Origin: Candidatus Zambryskiibacteriota bacterium
Lineage (GTDB): Bacteria; Patescibacteriota; Minisyncoccia; Phycocordibacterales; WO2-35-19
Direction of reading: 5' to 3'
Length of the DNA stretch: 64,000 nt
NCBI GenBank assembly: GCA_048499675.1
Contig: JASNZL010000004.1
Coordinates: 28,463-92,462, forward strand
Shown piece after piece: positions 30,683 to 60,399 of the stretch (position 1 is its first letter; every line of letters starts with the position of its first letter). A model generated the notes under the pieces. The model worked only from the letters and a program-made list of their open reading frames with translations, did not search any database and was not told the origin of the DNA. Made by a program: the position numbers and the translations under genes.

Positions 30683-31984
30683 TTACTGGTTATTACCTTT
30701 TATAAAGTCCTTAATTTCTAGAACATTTCCAGAAAATTCTTCGCGAGTTTTTGTATTTCTAATTGTAAATTTACCACTTTCTAATTCACTAGATCCCACA
30801 GTAATAACAAAAGGAACATTCCTTTTATCTAAACTTTTTAGCTGATCAGCTAATTTTCTTCCCGATATGTCTACCATAACATTCAAATTTTGTTCTCTAA
30901 AACTAGAAGCTATTTTGTAAACTTCTTCGATATTTGTTTCAGGAACAGTACATATGTATAGGTCTGTTGTTGACCTTTTATTAGGTAACAAATTATGAGT
31001 TGTTAGGAAATCTTTTATGGTCACATCGCCCATACCAAAACCAATAGCAGGAACCGAGCGATTAGAAAACATCTCTATCAGGTTGTCGTATCTACCACCA
31101 CCAAATAATGATCTTGGATTTTCAGGATTTGTATCAAAAACCTCAAATACTATCCCGGTGTAATAATCAAAACCTCGAGTCAAAGTTCCACTAAAGACGA
31201 TATTCGAAATACCTCGGTCCCTTAGAGTTTGAATTACCTTACCTATGTACTTTGCAGACTCCAATCCTCCCAACATAGAAAATATACCCTCTCCGTAATA
31301 CAGATTTTCAAAAAGACTTGTTGTCTTATCCTCCCCAATCAAATCCTTAATAGAATTTCTAAACTTGTCTTCGGACATCTTTTCTTTCTTATCTATAAGT
31401 CTGAGTAATTCATTTTTGTTAGAATCAGCTATGCCAATTTTTTTGAATAAATCATCCATTAAGGAACGGCTATTTATCTTTATTTGAAAGTCCTCTGGTT
31501 TAGCGCCAAAATTTTTCATAATTTGACTTGCAACCTGTATCACTTCCACATCAGCAGTAAATTCGGATACACCAAAAATATCAACATTTAACTGCCAATG
31601 TTCTCGAAGTCTACCTCTTTGAGGTTTTTCGTATCTAAAAAGGTTTGGTATTGAATACCATCTAATAGGGAAGATAAGTTCCTGTATTTTTTGAGCAACC
31701 ATTCGCGCAACCGTTGGAGTCATTTCTGGCCGGAGTGCAACGCTTCTATCTCCTCTATCTTTAAAAGTATAGATTTGTTCATTTATTATTTCTTCGCTAG
31801 TTTTTGATTTATATAAATCTAGTGGTTCCAAAATAGAAGCATTGTATTCTTCATAACCCCAAGATTCAACTGTTTTCCTCATTATGCCAAAAATATAATT
31901 TTGAACTGATTGATCTTCTGGATAAAAATCTCTGACACCTTTGTAGCTTTCCGTTCCTATTTTGTTTTTGCCGAATCCAAACAT
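30683..31984 (-). CDS. hisS: Histidine--tRNA ligase
   Basis: Class II motifs YKGVRDFYP and ALRPEMT, plus the C-terminal anticodon-binding domain, are present. Confidence 0.9.
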   Translation of the reverse strand: MFGFGKNKIGTESYKGVRDFYPEDQSVQNYIFGIMRKTVESWGYEEYNASILEPLDLYKSKTSEEIINEQIYTFKDRGDRSVALRPEMTPTVARMVAQKIQELIFPIRWYSIPNLFRYEKPQRGRLREHWQLNVDIFGVSEFTADVEVIQVASQIMKNFGAKPEDFQIKINSRSLMDDLFKKIGIADSNKNELLRLIDKKEKMSEDKFRNSIKDLIGEDKTTSLFENLYYGEGIFSMLGGLESAKYIGKVIQTLRDRGISNIVFSGTLTRGFDYYTGIVFEVFDTNPENPRSLFGGGRYDNLIEMFSNRSVPAIGFGMGDVTIKDFLTTHNLLPNKRSTTDLYICTVPETNIEEVYKIASSFREQNLNVMVDISGRKLADQLKSLDKRNVPFVITVGSSELESGKFTIRNTKTREEFSGNVLEIKDFIKGNNQ

Positions 31985-32007: not shown

Positions 32008-33309
32008 ATGAACAAATCACAAGACACAAAAACAGACCAAAATTGGCCATATTTAGTAAACAAGAAAAACCTCTCAAAAATTCCACCCAAAGCTGGGGTT
32101 TATAAATTTTTAGGCAAAAATAATAAAATTCTTTATATTGGCAAAGCTACAAACCTCAAAAGTAGAGTGAGGAGCTATTTCTCTAAAGATCTGGAAGTAA
32201 AAAGAAGTCCGCTTATAAGTAAGATGGTTAATGAGGCAAAAAAGATAAAATATGAGGTTACAGAAACCGTATTAGAGTCTCTTATATTAGAAGCCCATCT
32301 AATAAAAAAATTCACACCGCCCTATAATACCGCAGACAAAGATCAAAAAAGTTTTTATTTTGTAGTCGTTACAAAAAAAAGTTTTCCAAGAATTCTTTTG
32401 GTAAGAGAAAGAGAAATTAAATCTGGAAAACTAAATTTTGAAATTGATGAATATTTTGGACCATACCCGCACGGAAGCGAATTAAAAGAAGCACTCAAAA
32501 TAATAAGGAAGATTTTTCCTTTTAGGGATAAGTGTAGTCCATATACAGAAGATTCAAAAAGCGACATAAAAAAGAAGCCGTGTTTTAATTTTCAAATTGG
32601 TCTATGTCCGGGAGTTTGTATTGGATTAATCAACGAAAAGGAATACGCAAAAACAATCAAAAATATAAAAACTTTTTTTAGAGGAAATAAAAAAAGTTTA
32701 ATAAAAGATCTTGAGAAAGAAATGAAATTGTTGGCTAAGAAAAAGGAATTTGAAAAAGCTTCTATAATAAAAAAGAAAATATTTGCTCTTAATCACATAA
32801 ATGACGTGTCCTTAATTCGCGCGAATAAGGAAGCGAGTATAAATAATTTTAGGATTGAAGCATATGACATCGCACATTTATCCGGCACAAATATGGTTGG
32901 TGTAATGACTGTAATAGAAAATGGGGAAATAAACAAAAAAGAATACAAAATGTTTAAAATAAAAGAGCAGAAGAACACAGACGACACAAAAGCTCTGAGC
33001 GAGATTTTGAGAAGGAGATTCAAACACAATGAATGGAATACACCAAACTTGATTGTTGTAGATGGTGGGGTTGCTCAGCTCAACACAGCAAAAAAAGTCT
33101 TAAAGGAAGCAGAAAAAAATCTTCCAATTGTTGCTGTCACAAAAGACGAGAGACACAAACCAAAAGAAATACTAGGAATTGAAGAATTAAAAAATATAAA
33201 GACTGAAACACTAAAAAACCAAATTCTCCTAGCAAATAGCGAAGCGCACCGATTTGCAATTAAGTATCATAGGAAAAGAAGAGGTAAATCAACTTTTATT
33301 GATGTTTAA
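32008..33309 (+). CDS. uvrC: UvrC-like excinuclease, short form (GIY-YIG, UVR and endonuclease regions) without the C-terminal HhH module
   Basis: GVYKFLGKNNKILYIGKATNLKSRVRSYF is the GIY-YIG motif. The UVR motif EKASIIKKKIFAL is present. The protein is 433 aa against about 600 aa typical. Confidence 0.75.
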   Translation: MNKSQDTKTDQNWPYLVNKKNLSKIPPKAGVYKFLGKNNKILYIGKATNLKSRVRSYFSKDLEVKRSPLISKMVNEAKKIKYEVTETVLESLILEAHLIKKFTPPYNTADKDQKSFYFVVVTKKSFPRILLVREREIKSGKLNFEIDEYFGPYPHGSELKEALKIIRKIFPFRDKCSPYTEDSKSDIKKKPCFNFQIGLCPGVCIGLINEKEYAKTIKNIKTFFRGNKKSLIKDLEKEMKLLAKKKEFEKASIIKKKIFALNHINDVSLIRANKEASINNFRIEAYDIAHLSGTNMVGVMTVIENGEINKKEYKMFKIKEQKNTDDTKALSEILRRRFKHNEWNTPNLIVVDGGVAQLNTAKKVLKEAEKNLPIVAVTKDERHKPKEILGIEELKNIKTETLKNQILLANSEAHRFAIKYHRKRRGKSTFIDV

Positions 33310-40850: not shown

Positions 40851-41804
40851 ATGAACAAAAGGATATTATCTGGGGTTAAACCCACAGGCAAACCGCATTT
40901 GGGAAATTACTTTGGTGCTATGCGCCAGTTTGTTGATTTACAAAATCAAAACGAGGGAGAGAATTTCTTTATGATTGCAAACTATCACGCTCTCAATTTT
41001 ATCCAAAATGGCGAAGAACTTAGAGAACTAACGGATAGTTTGATTATTGATTTCCTCGCAATAGGTTTGGACCCAAAGAAATCTAATATATTCAAACAAT
41101 CTGATGTTTCGGAGCACACAGAACTTGCTTGGATTTTTGATTCAATTACGACAGTCCCTTATTTGAAAAGAGCTCATGCTTACAAAGACGCACTAGCAAA
41201 GGGCGGGGAAGAGAGTGTGAGCGCTGGCACATTTACATATCCAATGCTTATGGCTTCTGACATTCTGCTCTACTCGCCGGACATTGTTCCTGTGGGCTAT
41301 GACCAAAAACAACACATTGAATTTGCAAGAGATACTGCAGAAAAATTTAATAGAATTTTCTCTGAAACTTTCAAAATGCCCGAGGATTATATTATTCCAA
41401 ATGTAGAAACAGTCCCCGGTATTGATGGTAAAAAAATGAGTAAGAGTTATGGAAATACAATAGGGCTTTTTGCAAACGATGAAGAAATTGAAGAAAAAGT
41501 GATGGCTATTGTTACAGATTCTAGTGGTGAAGTACCTACAAATGTTTATGCGATACATCGACTAATAAGAAATGAAGAGGAGATAAATAATATCTACGAA
41601 GATAATAAAGGTAAGTACAAAATACTAAAAGAAATTTTGATAGAAGATTTGAAAAATTTTATAAGACCTCTAAGAGAAAAAAGGCAAGAAATTGAATCAA
41701 ATAAAAACTATATTAGTGAAGCACTAAAAACAGGCACAGAAAGAGCCCGCGCGGTCGCGAGCTCAAAACTTGTTGAGGCCAAAGGAGCTATTGGTGCTCT
41801 TTAG
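40851..41804 (+). CDS. trpS: Tryptophan--tRNA ligase
   Basis: Class I HIGH-like GKPHLGNYFG and KMSKS (KKMSKS) are present. Confidence 0.9.
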   Translation: MNKRILSGVKPTGKPHLGNYFGAMRQFVDLQNQNEGENFFMIANYHALNFIQNGEELRELTDSLIIDFLAIGLDPKKSNIFKQSDVSEHTELAWIFDSITTVPYLKRAHAYKDALAKGGEESVSAGTFTYPMLMASDILLYSPDIVPVGYDQKQHIEFARDTAEKFNRIFSETFKMPEDYIIPNVETVPGIDGKKMSKSYGNTIGLFANDEEIEEKVMAIVTDSSGEVPTNVYAIHRLIRNEEEINNIYEDNKGKYKILKEILIEDLKNFIRPLREKRQEIESNKNYISEALKTGTERARAVASSKLVEAKGAIGAL

Positions 41805-41989: not shown

Positions 41990-43771
41990 ATGCAAACTGA
42001 ACAATCAAATAACGTAGGTATGCTGGTAGTCTTAAAGTACCTATGGAAAGCAGTCAGTCCACAAAAATGGTCTGTTTACTTCACCATATCTGCTTTTTTG
42101 GTAACAAACATCATATCTATACTTATCCCTTTAATATACAAAAAATTCTTTGATATCTTGGCACAAGACGGAGATAAACTACTTTTGAGTCCTAGCCTCA
42201 TAAAATTAATTTTGTATATTTTCTTCCTCCACTGCGTAGTTTGGGTATTTTTCAGAACTGGAATGCTTGCATTAAATAAACTAGAGTCGAGAACCATGGC
42301 GAGAATAAGGCAGATGTCTTTTGACTACATGCTTAAACATTCTTATTCTTTTTACACAAACAACTTTACTGGTTCATTAGTTCAAAAAGTGAGCCGTTTT
42401 AGTAGATCTTTTGAAAGACTCTACGATATGCTTGTTTTCAATGTTATACCACTAGTCATACACGCGACTGGAGTAATAATTGTGGTTTATTTCCAAGAGC
42501 CTTTTATTTCCTACATCATACTTGCTTGGATAACAATTATTTTTATTTTTAATTACTTCTTCCAAAAGTGGAAATTAAAATATGATTTGCTCGCCACAAA
42601 AGCAGACTCCGCAACAAGCGGAGCTTTGGCCGATGCTCTCTCAAATCAAAACACAATCGTTTCTTTCAATGGTTTTTTGAAAGAGTCAGAAGACTTCAAA
42701 AAAATTACCCTAGACCAGTCTGACAAGCAAATACATACTTGGAATCTTTCGATTATAAAAGATTTGGTCCAGTCGGGGCTTATGATTATAGTCGAGCTTG
42801 TGATTTTCTATTACGCAATAAAATTCTGGGAAAGAGATTTGATAACGGTCGGTACTTTTGTATTAATCCAAGTTTATATTTTGGGATTATCAAATAGGTT
42901 GTGGGATTTTGGAAGAATAATCAGAAACATATATGAAAGCTTTGCCGACTCAAAGGAAATGGTTGAGATACTAGAGATGCCATATGAAATAAAAGATATC
43001 CCAACAGCAAAAGACTTAAACGTAACAAAAGGTGAGATAGAATTTAAAAATGTAAATTTTGCTTTCAATCAAACAAGAAATGTTTTGGATGATATTAATT
43101 TGAGAATAAACAATGGTGAAAAAGTTGCGCTTATCGGACCATCCGGAGCAGGCAAATCTACAATAGTTAAATTGCTTCTAAGGATGTATGACTTAACTTC
43201 AGGAACAATAGAGATTGACGGACAAAACATAAAAGAAGCAACTCAAAATAGTCTGAGACAAAACATAAGTTTGGTACCACAAGATCCAGTACTCTTCCAT
43301 AGAACACTTATGGACAATATTAGATACGGCCGAGAAAATGCAACTGATGAAGAAGTTATGGAAGCTTCAAAACTGGCACACTGCGATGAGTTTATACAAG
43401 AGCTACCGCTAAAATACGAAACCTTTGTAGGAGAAAGGGGAATAAAACTTTCTGGTGGAGAAAGACAGCGAGTCGCTATCGCAAGAGCCATCTTAAAAAA
43501 TGCTCCAATCCTTATTCTAGACGAAGCCACTTCGAGTTTAGACTCACATTCTGAAAGTCTTATCCAAGATGCGCTTGAAAAATTGATGCATGGCAAAACA
43601 AGTATCGTAATCGCTCACCGACTTTCAACAATAAGAAAGATGGACAAAGTTATAGTTATAAAAGATGGGAAAGTCGCAGAAGAAGGAAGTCACGAAGAAT
43701 TAACCAAAAAAGAAGAAGGTATATACAAAAACCTATGGGAACTCCAAGCAGGTGGATTTTTGCCTGAATAG
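41990..43771 (+). CDS. ABC exporter, fused permease and ATPase (MsbA/type I exporter-like)
   Basis: Six N-terminal TM helices. Walker A GPSGAGKST, the signature LSGGERQR and Walker B ILILDEATS are present. Confidence 0.9.
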   Translation: MQTEQSNNVGMLVVLKYLWKAVSPQKWSVYFTISAFLVTNIISILIPLIYKKFFDILAQDGDKLLLSPSLIKLILYIFFLHCVVWVFFRTGMLALNKLESRTMARIRQMSFDYMLKHSYSFYTNNFTGSLVQKVSRFSRSFERLYDMLVFNVIPLVIHATGVIIVVYFQEPFISYIILAWITIIFIFNYFFQKWKLKYDLLATKADSATSGALADALSNQNTIVSFNGFLKESEDFKKITLDQSDKQIHTWNLSIIKDLVQSGLMIIVELVIFYYAIKFWERDLITVGTFVLIQVYILGLSNRLWDFGRIIRNIYESFADSKEMVEILEMPYEIKDIPTAKDLNVTKGEIEFKNVNFAFNQTRNVLDDINLRINNGEKVALIGPSGAGKSTIVKLLLRMYDLTSGTIEIDGQNIKEATQNSLRQNISLVPQDPVLFHRTLMDNIRYGRENATDEEVMEASKLAHCDEFIQELPLKYETFVGERGIKLSGGERQRVAIARAILKNAPILILDEATSSLDSHSESLIQDALEKLMHGKTSIVIAHRLSTIRKMDKVIVIKDGKVAEEGSHEELTKKEEGIYKNLWELQAGGFLPE

Positions 43772-43789
43772 TATTTTTTATCGTATTGT

Positions 43790-44100
43790 GATATAATAAA
43801 AGAAAGCAATGAAGCTGGCTTGAGTGTAGTAGCTCAAGAAAACACAGCTGAGCTTGAGGAAGAAAGTTGCCCTAAAACATTACTTAGTAATGTTCGGGTA
43901 AACAAGTAGAACCTCACGGGTAAGCCCGTTATAGCGATAATGAGTAATTTGCGAGTACCAGAGAATTGACCCTAAACACCAATAAATTGGTGTCGGGTGA
44001 TCCGCTCTAGTATAAGTGAATCAAGTAAGGTGGCACCGCGTTTAGAGACGCCCTTACAAAATTTCAACTTGTTTGAAATTTTGTAAGGGCGTATTTAATT
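43790..44100 (+). promoter_or_regulatory. T-box riboswitch leader controlling aspS (promoter, Stem I region, T-box sequence, and intrinsic terminator)
   Basis: Extended -10 TGaTATAAT at 43789-43797. T-box consensus aaGUAaGGUGGcACCGCG at 44023-44040. A 20 bp perfect terminator stem at 44049-44068 / 44074-44093 is followed by atttaattt. The T-box overlaps the 5' side of the terminator, as in antiterminator/terminator switching. The UGGC bulge base C fits tRNA-Asp G73. Confidence 0.65.
44049..44100 (+). terminator. Intrinsic terminator of the aspS T-box leader
   Basis: acgcccttacaaaatttcaa / ttgaaattttgtaagggcgt stem with a 5 nt loop and a U-rich tail. Confidence 0.7.
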
Positions 44101-44134
44101 TAAATTATTCCAAAATTAACATTAACCAAAAATT

Positions 44135-45529
44135 ATGGAGAGAATATATATAAAAGACCTAAACAAAGAAATAGGCAAAGAAGTTGTTATCAAAGGATGG
44201 GTGGATGTTGTAAGAGACCAAGGCAAAATGGTATTTTTTGATTTTAGAGACATGACAGGCAAGGTACAAGGAGTTGTTCTTACCGGCAATCAAGAATTAA
44301 CAGACCTTGCAAAGACAATAAGGCCTGAATGGGTAGTTTCAATAAATGGAATAGTCAACAAAAGACCTACAAAAATGGTAAATGAAAAAGTTTTAAACGG
44401 AGATATAGAACTTGAAGTAAAAGAAATAGAAATTCTAAACAAAGCCGAAACACTACCTTTTGATATAACAGTAGATACAGGAAATATAGATGAAAATACA
44501 AGACTCAAATACAGATATCTAGATCTTAGAAGCGAGAGGATGCAAAAAAATATTCGCCTTAGAAGTGAATTTGTAAAAAGAGTAAGGGAGCATTTGTTCA
44601 AAAAAATGTTTACCGAAATTGAGACGCCACTTCTTACCGAATCCACACCAGAAGGTAGTAGAGACTTTGTGGTGCCAAGCAGATTAAACCCTGGAAAATT
44701 TTATGCACTTCCGCAATCACCACAACAATACAAGCAACTCCTAATGACAGCTGGATTTGAAAAATATTTTCAAATAGCGAGAGCAATCAGAGACGAGGAC
44801 TTGAGAGCGGACCGTGGATTTGAACACACTCAAGTCGACATTGAAATGTCTTTTGTAAATATGGAGGATGTAATGAACACTGTAGAAGAGATGATTACAG
44901 AAGTTGTAGAAAGTCTTGGATATACAATCAAACAAAAACCATTTCCAAGAATAAGTTATAAAGATGCTATGGAAAAATACGGTGCTGATAAATTTGATTT
45001 GAGAACTGAAGAGGAAAAAGAGAAAGGAATTTTGGCTTATGCTTGGGTAGTAAACTTTCCATTTTTTGAAAAGACAGACGATGGTAAATGGACATTTACA
45101 CATAACCCATTTTCAATGCCAATCCCTGAACACGTTGAGTGGCTCTTGGAAGGCAAAAACATTGAGAAAATACTTACAACCCAATACGACCTTGTTTGCA
45201 ACGGATACGAGTCAGGAGGTGGGTCTGTAAGAGCACATAAGCCCGAAATTCTTCGCGCAACGTACAAAGTTATGGAATATACCGATGAGCAAATAGAACA
45301 CAGTGTAGGGCATATGTTAGACGCATTCAAATACGGAACACCTCCACATGGCGGAATTGCTCTTGGAGTTGAGAGAAATATAATGAACCTGACAGGAGAA
45401 TCTTTTCTTCGTGAAGTTCAAACATTTCCAATGACAAGAGGAGGACAGACGGCAGTGATGAAAGCGCCGAGCGATTTAAGCGAGAAACAGTTGAAGGAGT
45501 TGGGGATAGAGGTGAAGAAAGGGAAGTAG
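44135..45529 (+). CDS. aspS: Aspartate--tRNA ligase, short bacterial-type without the GAD insertion domain
   Basis: N-terminal OB fold. Motif 2 is FQIARAIRDEDLRADRGFEHTQVDIEMSF (bacterial FRDEDLRADRQPEFTQID). QSPQQYKQLLM and the motif 3 region GGGSVRAH are present. The protein is 464 aa. Confidence 0.9.
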   Translation: MERIYIKDLNKEIGKEVVIKGWVDVVRDQGKMVFFDFRDMTGKVQGVVLTGNQELTDLAKTIRPEWVVSINGIVNKRPTKMVNEKVLNGDIELEVKEIEILNKAETLPFDITVDTGNIDENTRLKYRYLDLRSERMQKNIRLRSEFVKRVREHLFKKMFTEIETPLLTESTPEGSRDFVVPSRLNPGKFYALPQSPQQYKQLLMTAGFEKYFQIARAIRDEDLRADRGFEHTQVDIEMSFVNMEDVMNTVEEMITEVVESLGYTIKQKPFPRISYKDAMEKYGADKFDLRTEEEKEKGILAYAWVVNFPFFEKTDDGKWTFTHNPFSMPIPEHVEWLLEGKNIEKILTTQYDLVCNGYESGGGSVRAHKPEILRATYKVMEYTDEQIEHSVGHMLDAFKYGTPPHGGIALGVERNIMNLTGESFLREVQTFPMTRGGQTAVMKAPSDLSEKQLKELGIEVKKGK

Positions 45530-59046: not shown

Positions 59047-60399
59047 ATGGCTCTAAATAATGATATTATAGTTAGATTTCCACCTTCACCTACCGGTTTT
59101 TTGCATATAGGTAATGCTCGTACCTTTCTTTTTAATTATCTTTTTGCCAAGAAAAACAGTGGTAAAATCGTTTTTAGACTTGAAGATACTGACAAAGAAA
59201 GATCAAAAAAGGAGTACGAGGACGACATAATAGAAAATTTAAAATGGCTCGGAATAGAACCTGATTTTTCGACACAAATAAGACAATCAGAGAGGGGTCA
59301 TATCTACAAAAAATATATAGAAGAAATGATAGCAAAAGGCAAAGCCTATATCTCAAAAGAGGAGAAAACTGAAGAAGGCCAGAGGGACGAGGTAATAAGA
59401 TTTAGAAATCCAAACAAAGAGATTATATTTAGTGATTTAATTAGGGGTGATATAAAATTCGACACAACTGAACTTGGAGATTTTGTAATAGCAAAAAGCC
59501 TTGAAGAGCCAGTTTACCACCTAGCAGTTGTTATTGATGATTTCCTTATGGGAGTAAATCATATAATAAGAGGGGACGATGGTATATCAAATACCCCAAG
59601 ACAAATTCTTATCCAAGAAGCCATCGGAGCGAATAGACCAACCTATGCTCACTTGCCTTTAATGCTAGCACCCGACAAAACAAAGCTTTCAAAAAGAAAG
59701 CACGGCGAGACCGTTTCGGTTAAATATTATAGAGAAAAAGGCTATATAAAAGAAGCTGTCGTTAACTACCTAGCTCTTGTTGGTTGGAATCCAGGGGTTA
59801 ATCAGGAACTTTTTAGTCTAGACGAATTAATTAATTTTTTTGATATAAAAAAGGTCCAAAAAAAGGGCGCCATTTTTGATTTAGAAAAATTAAACTGGGT
59901 CAACAGACAATATTTATTGCAGACTCCACACAACCTCCAAATAGAAGAACTTAAAAATCAAATAAATAAAACTGAACTTGCAAATCACAAAAAAATGGAT
60001 GATTCCGTTTTTGTAACAAACTTTTTGATTATATTGATGGAGAGAATAAATGTTTGGAGTGATATTAAAATGAGTATAGAAGAAGGGGAGTATGATTACC
60101 TTTTTGAAGAACCAGAGATAGACCCCAACCTTATAAAATGGAAATATACGGATAATCCAACCACACTTAAACACTTAATATTCCTTAAACAATTAATAGA
60201 AAATTCAAAAGAGAAAGAATTAATTACTGAAGAAATAAAATCTTACGCAGAAAAAGAGGGGAAGGGAGATGTATTGTGGCCACTTCGCTATTCCCTATCG
60301 GGAAGAGAAAAATCACCAGACCCATTTACCTTGGTTAATATTTTAGAAATTGAAGAATCTATAAATCGATTATCAAAAGCTATCAGTTTATTGTCATAA
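59047..60399 (+). CDS. gltX: Glutamate--tRNA ligase
   Basis: RFPPSPTGFLHIGNART is the class I HIGH motif. KLSKRK is the KMSKS-like motif. Confidence 0.9.
   Translation: MALNNDIIVRFPPSPTGFLHIGNARTFLFNYLFAKKNSGKIVFRLEDTDKERSKKEYEDDIIENLKWLGIEPDFSTQIRQSERGHIYKKYIEEMIAKGKAYISKEEKTEEGQRDEVIRFRNPNKEIIFSDLIRGDIKFDTTELGDFVIAKSLEEPVYHLAVVIDDFLMGVNHIIRGDDGISNTPRQILIQEAIGANRPTYAHLPLMLAPDKTKLSKRKHGETVSVKYYREKGYIKEAVVNYLALVGWNPGVNQELFSLDELINFFDIKKVQKKGAIFDLEKLNWVNRQYLLQTPHNLQIEELKNQINKTELANHKKMDDSVFVTNFLIILMERINVWSDIKMSIEEGEYDYLFEEPEIDPNLIKWKYTDNPTTLKHLIFLKQLIENSKEKELITEEIKSYAEKEGKGDVLWPLRYSLSGREKSPDPFTLVNILEIEESINRLSKAISLLS

Follow-up and report, generated by a model that had tools for sequence, protein, structure and literature searches.

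An elbow-independent, terminator-type T-box leader with an asparagine specifier upstream of aspS in a bacterium of the candidate phyla radiation

The leader and its gene

We have analyzed a stretch of 64,000 nucleotides (64 kb; termed the window) from contig JASNZL010000004.1 of Candidatus Zambryskiibacteriota bacterium, a member of the Patescibacteria or candidate phyla radiation (CPR). The window carries aspS, the gene for aspartyl-tRNA synthetase (AspRS), and positions 43805-44092 are a T-box leader 5' of this gene. A T-box leader on aspS in a CPR genome had been proposed in a preliminary description of this DNA, and the Rfam T-box model RF00230, a family model termed R1, AspRS profiles and the CPR relatives of the locus all bear this out. 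The leader is more unusual than that description assumed. It is an elbow-independent, terminator-type aspS T-box with an asparagine specifier, and it belongs to a small and patchy family present in 6 of 80 close relatives. R1 is a covariance model built from nine related aspS leaders but not from the window; its 122 positions and 20 pairs extend from Stem I to the T-box core. The elements of the locus are as follows.

43789-43797, plus strand: extended -10 promoter element TGATATAAT, read from the sequence
43805-43854, plus strand: Stem I of the truncated 'intermediate' type, from the RF00230 and R1 alignments; fold of -14.6 kcal/mol, helices covary in the family
43819-43838, plus strand: lineage-specific hairpin CUUGAG-UGUAGUAG-CUCAAG, 5' of the specifier and absent from ultrashort relatives
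43841-43844, plus strand: specifier AAC (an Asn codon, 43841-43843) with the conserved purine A43844, position set by alignment with homologues
43856-43915, plus strand: Stem II with the S-turn strands AAGAAAG (43860-43866) and AAGUAGAA (43904-43911) and a long apical hairpin; fold of -16.3 kcal/mol, RF00230 and R1
43916-43931, plus strand: Stem IIA hairpin ACGGG-UAAG-CCCGU with the F-box-like CCGUUA, from the RF00230 alignment and the fold
43947-44021, plus strand: long Stem III-like hairpin between Stem IIA and the T-box sequence, predicted only, from the fold of 43916-44025 and the alignment
44026-44056, plus strand: antiterminator with helix A1 (UAAGG/CCUUA), the 7-nt bulge UGGCACC and helix A2 (GCGUU/GACGC), from the free fold and RF00230
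44048-44109, plus strand: intrinsic terminator, a perfect 20-bp hairpin with a 5-nt loop (44048-44092; -28.2 kcal/mol) and the tail AUUUAAUUUAAAUUAUU (44093-44109)
44135-45529, plus strand: aspS, encoding a 464-aa bacterial-type AspRS (NF001750, TIGR00459)

When matches are reported by E-value, the whole of RF00230 (model positions 1-219) aligns to 43800-44058, with a score of 52.2 bits (E = 1.2e-10 in a 501-nt search, 1.6e-8 in the whole window). At E <= 0.01 the aspS leader is the sole match of this model in the whole window. The preliminary description had staked the assignment on a significant RF00230 score, and the answer is divided: the E-value is highly significant, but the bit score lies below the gathering score, which is 93 in the Rfam copy used, and at gathering thresholds no Rfam family matched anywhere in the window. 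The low score results from the missing distal part of Stem I, where 6 nt are aligned to 48 model positions. All other modules of the model align, namely the kink-turn (K-turn), the 3' side of the specifier loop, Stem II, Stem IIA, the T-box sequence and the antiterminator. Leaders of relatives score 45.5 and 31.2 bits, or lower, with RF00230. R1 finds one site in the 64 kb, at 43805-44040, which it matches over the full length of the model with 56.7 bits (E = 2.6e-13), and its alignment places a 27-nt insert in the Stem I loop. The leader (345 nt) folds far better than shuffled versions of it (z = -7.8).

The near-consensus T-box sequence that had been pointed out before is the 18-mer AAGUAAGGUGGCACCGCG at 44023-44040. 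Its core, AGGTGGNACCGCG, occurs once in the 64 kb, where 0.03 occurrences are expected by chance. The conserved T-box sequence AGGGUGGNACCGCG is present as AAGGUGGCACCGCG (44027-44040), with a single change (G to A) that is compensated in helix A1. An extended -10 element had been placed about 230 nt upstream, and it is found 234 nt from the 18-mer; transcription would start near 43804, just 5' of Stem I. In relatives, a -10-like hexamer lies 6-9 nt upstream of the Stem I base. At 43749-43766, CAGGTGGATTTTTGCCTG, with AATAGTATTT behind it, forms a small hairpin resembling a terminator, which overlaps the last codons of the upstream ABC-exporter gene. Located just before the aspS promoter, this hairpin could insulate the leader from read-in transcription.

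The S-turn strands of Stem II (GAA...AGUA) align to RF00230, and its lower and upper helices covary in the family. The IIA/B pseudoknot covaries in relatives (AGGC/GCCU, UGCG/CGCA, UGAGC/GCUCA, AGUUC/GAAUU and CAUGU/ACAUG), whereas the window has a IIA hairpin whose best IIB candidate, GUAAG/UUUGC, contains G-U pairs and lies 18 nt away. Most relatives have only a short linker in place of the Stem III-like hairpin.

Folded without constraints, 44026-44056 form exactly the canonical antiterminator, with a 5-bp A1 and a 5-bp A2 (-6.4 kcal/mol), and both helices are conserved or covary across the family. The bulge presents UGGC (44031-44034), which is complementary to a tRNA 3'-GCCA. Antiterminator and terminator share 9 nt (44048-44056). 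According to the preliminary description, the T-box sequence itself overlaps the 5' strand of a perfect 20-bp terminator hairpin followed by a U-tract, in the classical arrangement of mutually exclusive structures. The hairpin and the mutual exclusion are there, but the terminator's 5' strand is overlapped by the antiterminator's 3' strand (44047-44056), the pairing partner of the T-box sequence; the U-tract is interrupted, and a leader whose Stem I lacks the distal elbow-binding platform is not classical. Given -28.2 versus -6.4 kcal/mol and the shared 9 nt, termination should be the default state.

A GC-rich hairpin directly followed by a U-tract closes all 12 low-GC leaders of our set, the window included (for example UUUUUGCUU, UUUUUUGAU and UUUUCGUUU), and the U-tracts of the 11 related low-GC leaders are clean. 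In actinobacterial leaders a U-tract is missing (1.2 T per 9 nt on average), and GGAG or GAGG is found beside the start codon. In the window the hairpin ends 42 nt upstream of the ATG, and no sequence resembling a Shine-Dalgarno (SD) element is found inside the terminator hairpin or is visible before the aspS ATG. The U-tracts, the hairpin without an SD and the distance of 42 nt thus argue that this leader family acts on transcription.

Two AspRS profiles identify the gene behind the leader, NF001750 with 587 bits (cutoff 443) and TIGR00459 with 512 bits (cutoff 374); the match to either of them falls into two segments, while models of asparaginyl-tRNA synthetase (asnS) reach 129-136 bits on the same protein and stay below their cutoffs. 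Pfam finds only tRNA-synt_2 and the anticodon-binding OB fold. The window AspRS has no GAD insertion domain, which accounts for its length of 464 aa. The 80 relatives closest to it in the genome collection (62-84% identity) belong without exception to assemblies of Patescibacteria/CPR (Parcubacteria, Nomurabacteria, Kaiserbacteria and Paceibacteria), and all 80 are bacterial-type enzymes of about 460 aa without the GAD insertion. The GAD domain is treated as a hallmark of bacterial-type AspRS (PMC4206432).

Stem I, the specifier codon and the leader family

Stem I of the window is built from a base helix (AGC/GCU), a K-turn in which AAUGA (43808-43812) faces GA (43850-43851), and a specifier helix (AGCUG/CAGCU). 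Its loop consists of the inserted 6-bp hairpin, followed by AAAACA. The distal tRNA-elbow platform (AG bulge plus distal loop) is absent from Stem I, where only a 20-nt hairpin stands above the specifier, and the ultrashort relatives have no upper Stem I at all. The preliminary description had implied specificity for aspartate and expected a GAC or GAU specifier once Stem I was folded; neither codon occurs in Stem I (43805-43854). RF00230 places GAA-AAC-A in the specifier slot, which immediately precedes the 3' strand of the specifier helix.

Homologous leaders place the codon in the same position. T-box cores lie upstream of aspS in 6 of the 80 relatives, where Stem I has shrunk to the K-turn and a helix of 4-5 bp that is closed by a terminal loop of 6 nt. 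In five of these six the loop is CCAACA, CAAACA or AUAACA, and in the sixth (L014) it is CUGACAA. The assemblies behind the leaders include CAZAXK01 (L002), CAZHJF01 (L003) and JAKAKW01 (L021) for AAC and JACQGC01 (L014) for GAC. A specifier-agnostic metagenome scan, which looked for the Stem II S-turn strand, a gap and then a T-box core, yielded four further aspS leaders with the loops CAGACA, CUGACA, CUGACA and UUGACA. It also recovered more than 40 leaders of high GC from Actinobacteria; their loop is CCAUCA, and they belong to the familiar ultrashort class on ileS. Throughout the homologous short-Stem-I leaders the codon occupies loop positions 3-5 and is followed by A. Among the ten related aspS leaders the specifier is AAC in five and GAC in five, and when the window is added the slot reads R-A-C-A in 11/11, with invariant A-C-A columns. 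Only the first codon base (A or G) varies, which is exactly the difference between Asn and Asp. Codon and gene agree elsewhere as well: AUC precedes ileS (control L140, 816 bits), GAC precedes aspS (L091, L097), and in a canonical long Stem I GAA-A-AAC-A precedes asnS (L104, 641 bits). On the strength of these alignments the specifier of the window is AAC (Asn) and not GAC or GAU. A two-codon reading of AAAACA, with overlapping AAA and ACA, was rejected, since only AAC-A is conserved and the loops of relatives begin with CC, CA or AU.

Short Stem I structures are known from the actinobacterial ileS T-boxes (M. tuberculosis, M. smegmatis; 'class II' of TBDB). These share with the window the K-turn, the short specifier helix and the codon at loop positions 3-5 followed by A; their loop is CCAUCA, where the CPR aspS family has CCAACA or CUGACA. 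The actinobacterial 'intermediate' leaders L113 and L123 even carry a small hairpin 5' of the codon, in the same layout as the window (UCCGG[CUAC-AUCA-GUAG]GAAUCA-CCGGG, compared with AGCUG-G[CUUGAG-UGUAGUAG-CUCAAG]AAAACA-CAGCU). Both the actinobacterial class and the window lack the elbow platform and possess the Stem II S-turn, the T-box core and the UGGN bulge. Stem IIA/B is found in the actinobacterial class and in the aspS family, whereas the window has IIA but no evident IIB partner. There are further differences: the regulated gene is aspS and not ileS, the codon is AAC or GAC and not AUC, and the hosts are low-GC Patescibacteria/CPR and not Actinobacteria. The expression platform of the aspS family is an intrinsic terminator with a U-tract, while that of the actinobacterial ileS leaders is an SD sequestrator. 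With the canonical Firmicutes T-boxes (RF00230; B. subtilis tyrS, glyQS) the window shares the position in the 5' leader of an aminoacyl-tRNA synthetase gene, the K-turn, the specifier plus purine, the S-turn, IIA with CCGUUA, Stem III, the T-box sequence, the 7-nt bulge and the competing terminator. The canonical leaders, however, keep the platform of interdigitated T-loops for stacking on the tRNA elbow, and the window does not (6 nt versus 48 positions). Judged by these sequence features, the decoding half groups with the actinobacterial ultrashort/intermediate ileS T-boxes and the expression half with canonical transcriptional T-boxes.

The predicted helices are supported by covariation among the 12 low-GC leaders, the window included. 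In the model-fitted alignment 91.9% of cells pair, compared with 71.6 +/- 2.1% after shuffling (0/500 reach the observed value) and 31-51% in slid controls, and both-sided changes are present in 14/20 pairs. A second alignment was made with MAFFT and fitted to no structure, and it also covers the antiterminator and the IIA/B pseudoknot. Here, 84.5% of cells pair (71.5 +/- 1.5% shuffled, 31-47% in slid controls) and 20/33 pairs show both-sided changes.

Across the 80 relatives R1 matches only the six known leaders. Relatives with long gaps upstream of aspS have no T-box core, and R1 finds nothing there. A match resembling the core in L017 was dismissed as spurious, since it contains one mismatch and is accompanied neither by other T-box elements nor by an R1 match. 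On actinobacterial ileS leaders R1 scores 45-75 bits, the same range as for the window. Two of the leader-bearing loci, L021 (AAC) and L014 (GAC), are mutual closest relatives, with 82% AspRS identity and a common 3' domain. Together they nest inside the AAC clade, and the distant outgroups all have GAC. From this distribution, the specifier is seen to have flipped between AAC and GAC at least twice.

Several members of the wider set deserve mention in their own right. The leader of L014 (2821-2985) has the 7-nt loop CUGACAA, lacks Stem II and IIA/B, and carries an extra hairpin CCCGCC...GGCGGG inside Stem I, while in T-box core and terminator it hardly differs from L021. It may represent a variant in which reduction has gone further. 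At L097 (3856-4100; contig GC 0.50) a terminator-type leader with an ultrashort Stem I and GAC precedes a full-length AspRS of 606 aa that has a GAD domain, and therefore the leader class is not limited to the GAD-less CPR enzymes. At L089 (about 2160-2510) a 116-aa open reading frame (ORF) lies between the leader terminator and aspS, which would place two genes under the control of that T-box. L151 (88-224, minus strand; contig Ga0255345_1002319, GC 0.34) has an ultrashort Stem I with the loop CUAUCA (AUC, Ile), a Stem II S-turn, a T-box core and a hairpin followed by UUUUUU; the fetched DNA ends before the downstream gene. It looks like a terminator-type ultrashort Ile T-box of a CPR-like organism.

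Proposed sensing of tRNA-Asn and alternative readings

An asparagine codon in front of aspS has to be seen in the light of the two tRNAs and of the enzyme. tRNA-Asp and tRNA-Asn have the same identity sets, including the discriminator, and differ in C36 versus U36 (PMC9976931). The preliminary description took the UGGC of the bulge as complementary to G73 of tRNA-Asp. The UGGC is indeed present, but because the discriminator is common to both tRNAs it fits either and cannot discriminate between them. In three leaders (L002, L097, L121), which come from the AAC as well as the GAC group, the bulge reads UGGU instead of UGGC. It follows that in those organisms G73 pairs with the U as a wobble or the discriminator is A73. 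Where asparaginyl-tRNA synthetase (AsnRS) is missing, both tRNAs receive Asp from a non-discriminating AspRS, and the resulting Asp-tRNA-Asn is amidated by GatCAB (PMC8762117; PMC4206432), and this indirect route to Asn-tRNA is reported for most bacteria (PMC8762117). Since AspRS is then the sole enzyme that aminoacylates tRNA-Asn, feedback on aspS through uncharged tRNA-Asn would be logical.

The AspRS of the window is most likely non-discriminating and would then also aspartylate tRNA-Asn. AAC and GAC leaders precede the same type of enzyme. The AspRS clade has Gln or His, and never Leu, at the position where the solved discriminating T. thermophilus and E. coli enzymes have Leu, and the solved non-discriminating AspRS of P. 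aeruginosa has His at the position equivalent to Gln29 of the window. The AAC and GAC groups do not differ at the AspRS positions equivalent to Gln29 and Lys80. Neither asnS nor gatCAB was found among the annotated window ORFs of at least 150 aa or beside aspS in the leader-bearing loci. ARAGORN finds no tRNA gene in the window, and hence none for tRNA-Asn or tRNA-Asp; the only tRNA genes in 85 CPR and related loci are those for tRNA-Tyr and, once, tRNA-Gln.

We favor a joint reading, with a probability of about 0.72, in which the leader is a transcription-attenuating T-box on aspS, its AAC is read by tRNA-Asn, and the AspRS is non-discriminating. Transcription would begin at the extended -10 promoter. 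The truncated Stem I, the Stem II S-turn and Stem IIA would form a decoding pocket that offers AAC to the anticodon GUU of tRNA-Asn. As Stem I has no distal platform, the tRNA elbow would not be contacted, a lack for which Stem II should make up, as it does in actinobacterial ileS T-boxes. The 3'-GCCA of an uncharged tRNA would pair with the UGGC bulge and stabilize the weak antiterminator, which would block the 20-bp terminator and let RNA polymerase read through into aspS. A charged tRNA could not stabilize the antiterminator, and transcription would terminate by default. A non-discriminating AspRS would put Asp on tRNA-Asn, to be amidated later by GatCAB, and uncharged tRNA-Asn would then be a valid readout of too little AspRS activity.

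Several observations weigh against this reading. The RF00230 score of 52.2 bits is below the gathering score. The L1-loop residue of the AspRS is Lys80, as in the discriminating E. coli enzyme, which makes the non-discriminating signature ambiguous. No convincing IIB partner for the IIA loop is found in the window, and the U-tract of the window is U-rich but interrupted by A residues, the poorest in the family. The leader is present in only 6/80 close relatives and is therefore dispensable in the clade. The elbow platform that the window lacks is generally needed by transcriptional T-boxes (PMC7583486). Finally, the window and the fetched loci hold no gene for tRNA-Asn or tRNA-Asp, no asnS and no gatCAB, so that G73, U1-A72 and the indirect pathway are presumed for the window organism.

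Some of these points would also fit a decaying relic that no longer switches and whose hairpin is a constitutive attenuator or inert. The subthreshold Rfam score, the missing IIB partner, the interrupted U-tract, the missing platform and the loss or absence of the element in 74/80 relatives could all be taken as signs of decay. However, the low score is explained by the truncated Stem I, which is also found in the functional actinobacterial class. The K-turn, the codon with its purine, both S-turn strands and CCGUUA are intact, and so are the T-box core (with its one compensated change), the 7-nt bulge and the exact overlap of antiterminator and terminator. Moreover, a constitutive terminator of -28 kcal/mol in front of the only aspS of the window, an essential single-copy gene type, would be strongly counter-selected. 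We therefore regard a relic as unlikely.

We judge it just as unlikely that the leader responds to aspartate, with tRNA-Asp (GUC) as a ligand that tolerates an A-C mismatch at the first specifier base or reads a codon in another part of the leader. In its favor, aspS is the gene under control, five related aspS leaders have GAC in the same slot, and UGGC matches G73 of tRNA-Asp (PMC9976931). On the other hand, Stem I holds no GAC or GAU. The AAC of the window recurs in five relatives and is thus conserved and not a one-off mutation, and the slot follows the concordance of codon and gene elsewhere (AUC-ileS, AAC-asnS, GAC-aspS). G73 is common to tRNA-Asn and gives tRNA-Asp no preference. That the hairpin controls access of the ribosome and not transcription is very improbable, even though the T-boxes with an ultrashort or intermediate Stem I described to date act on translation (PMC7583486; bioRxiv 10.1101/2023.02.28.530422), because it ends 42 nt before the ATG with no SD inside it and none visible before the ATG, and because the U-rich tail of the window and the clean U-tracts of 11 relatives are unlike the SD-bearing actinobacterial set.

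In its logic, the proposed attenuation by tRNA-Asn comes nearest to a T-box of C. acetobutylicum that controls tRNA-dependent amidation (Saad et al. 2012, J Biol Chem 287:20382, cited in PMC4206432). The likeness lies in a T-box tied to the indirect Asn-tRNA-Asn pathway and in an AspRS under an asparagine-related signal. The clostridial element reportedly responds to tRNA-Asn. The two systems differ in that the window has no co-transcribed gatCAB (scpA and scpB follow instead), in that aspS is the sole copy found in the window and not a redundant extra one, in the truncated Stem I, and in the phylum.

The Asn codon on aspS, with the Asp codon in sister lineages, would be an unusually direct genomic sign of one AspRS serving both tRNAs, and the alternation suggests that either uncharged tRNA can serve as the feedback signal. 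We tentatively suggest, with somewhat less confidence than doubt, that the family is an undescribed T-box class of Patescibacteria/CPR, terminator-type and elbow-independent on aspS, whose specifier flips between GAC and AAC because one GAD-less AspRS charges both tRNAs. To our knowledge, almost nothing is known about gene regulation in the CPR, to which a functional leader would extend T-box regulation. No report of T-box riboswitches in CPR/Patescibacteria was found in the searchable literature, although several key papers lay outside the search and an earlier description is possible. With 31-52 bits against the RF00230 gathering score of 93, such leaders are missed by standard pipelines, and the short-Stem-I model of TBDB was searched in Actinobacteria only (PMC7778990). 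T-box regulation in the CPR is probably under-counted.

A functional leader would also contradict two generalizations. Ultrashort T-boxes are all said to regulate ileS, to sense tRNA-Ile and to act translationally (bioRxiv 10.1101/2023.02.28.530422), and the Stem I platform is held to be needed for fast co-transcriptional capture of the tRNA. A conserved, covarying family that combines a platform-less Stem I with a clean intrinsic terminator offers a natural test of this platform requirement. For engineering, it would provide a very compact (about 120-nt) transcriptional tRNA sensor.

Other genes of the window

Downstream of aspS the window carries scpA and scpB, and at L002, L003, L004 and L078 ORFs of matching sizes lie 3' of aspS, which we take as the same synteny. 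No second aspS is present among the annotated window ORFs. The remaining aminoacyl-tRNA synthetase genes had been described as having no such leader, and in agreement with this none of them is matched by RF00230 or R1 in whole-window scans.

30683-31984, minus strand: hisS, 23-nt gap, no T-box
40851-41804: trpS, 12-nt gap, no T-box
59047-60399: gltX, no T-box

The window is dense in housekeeping genes (rpoD, dnaG, hisS, trpS, aspS, gltX, murG, mraY and ftsW). Two further ORFs are short for their families. The pyruvate kinase ORF at 298-1317 matches only profile positions of about 135-476, and the UvrC ORF at 32008-33309 (433 aa) matches a 574-aa profile in two stretches. Both are either shortened proteins of a reduced genome or split genes.

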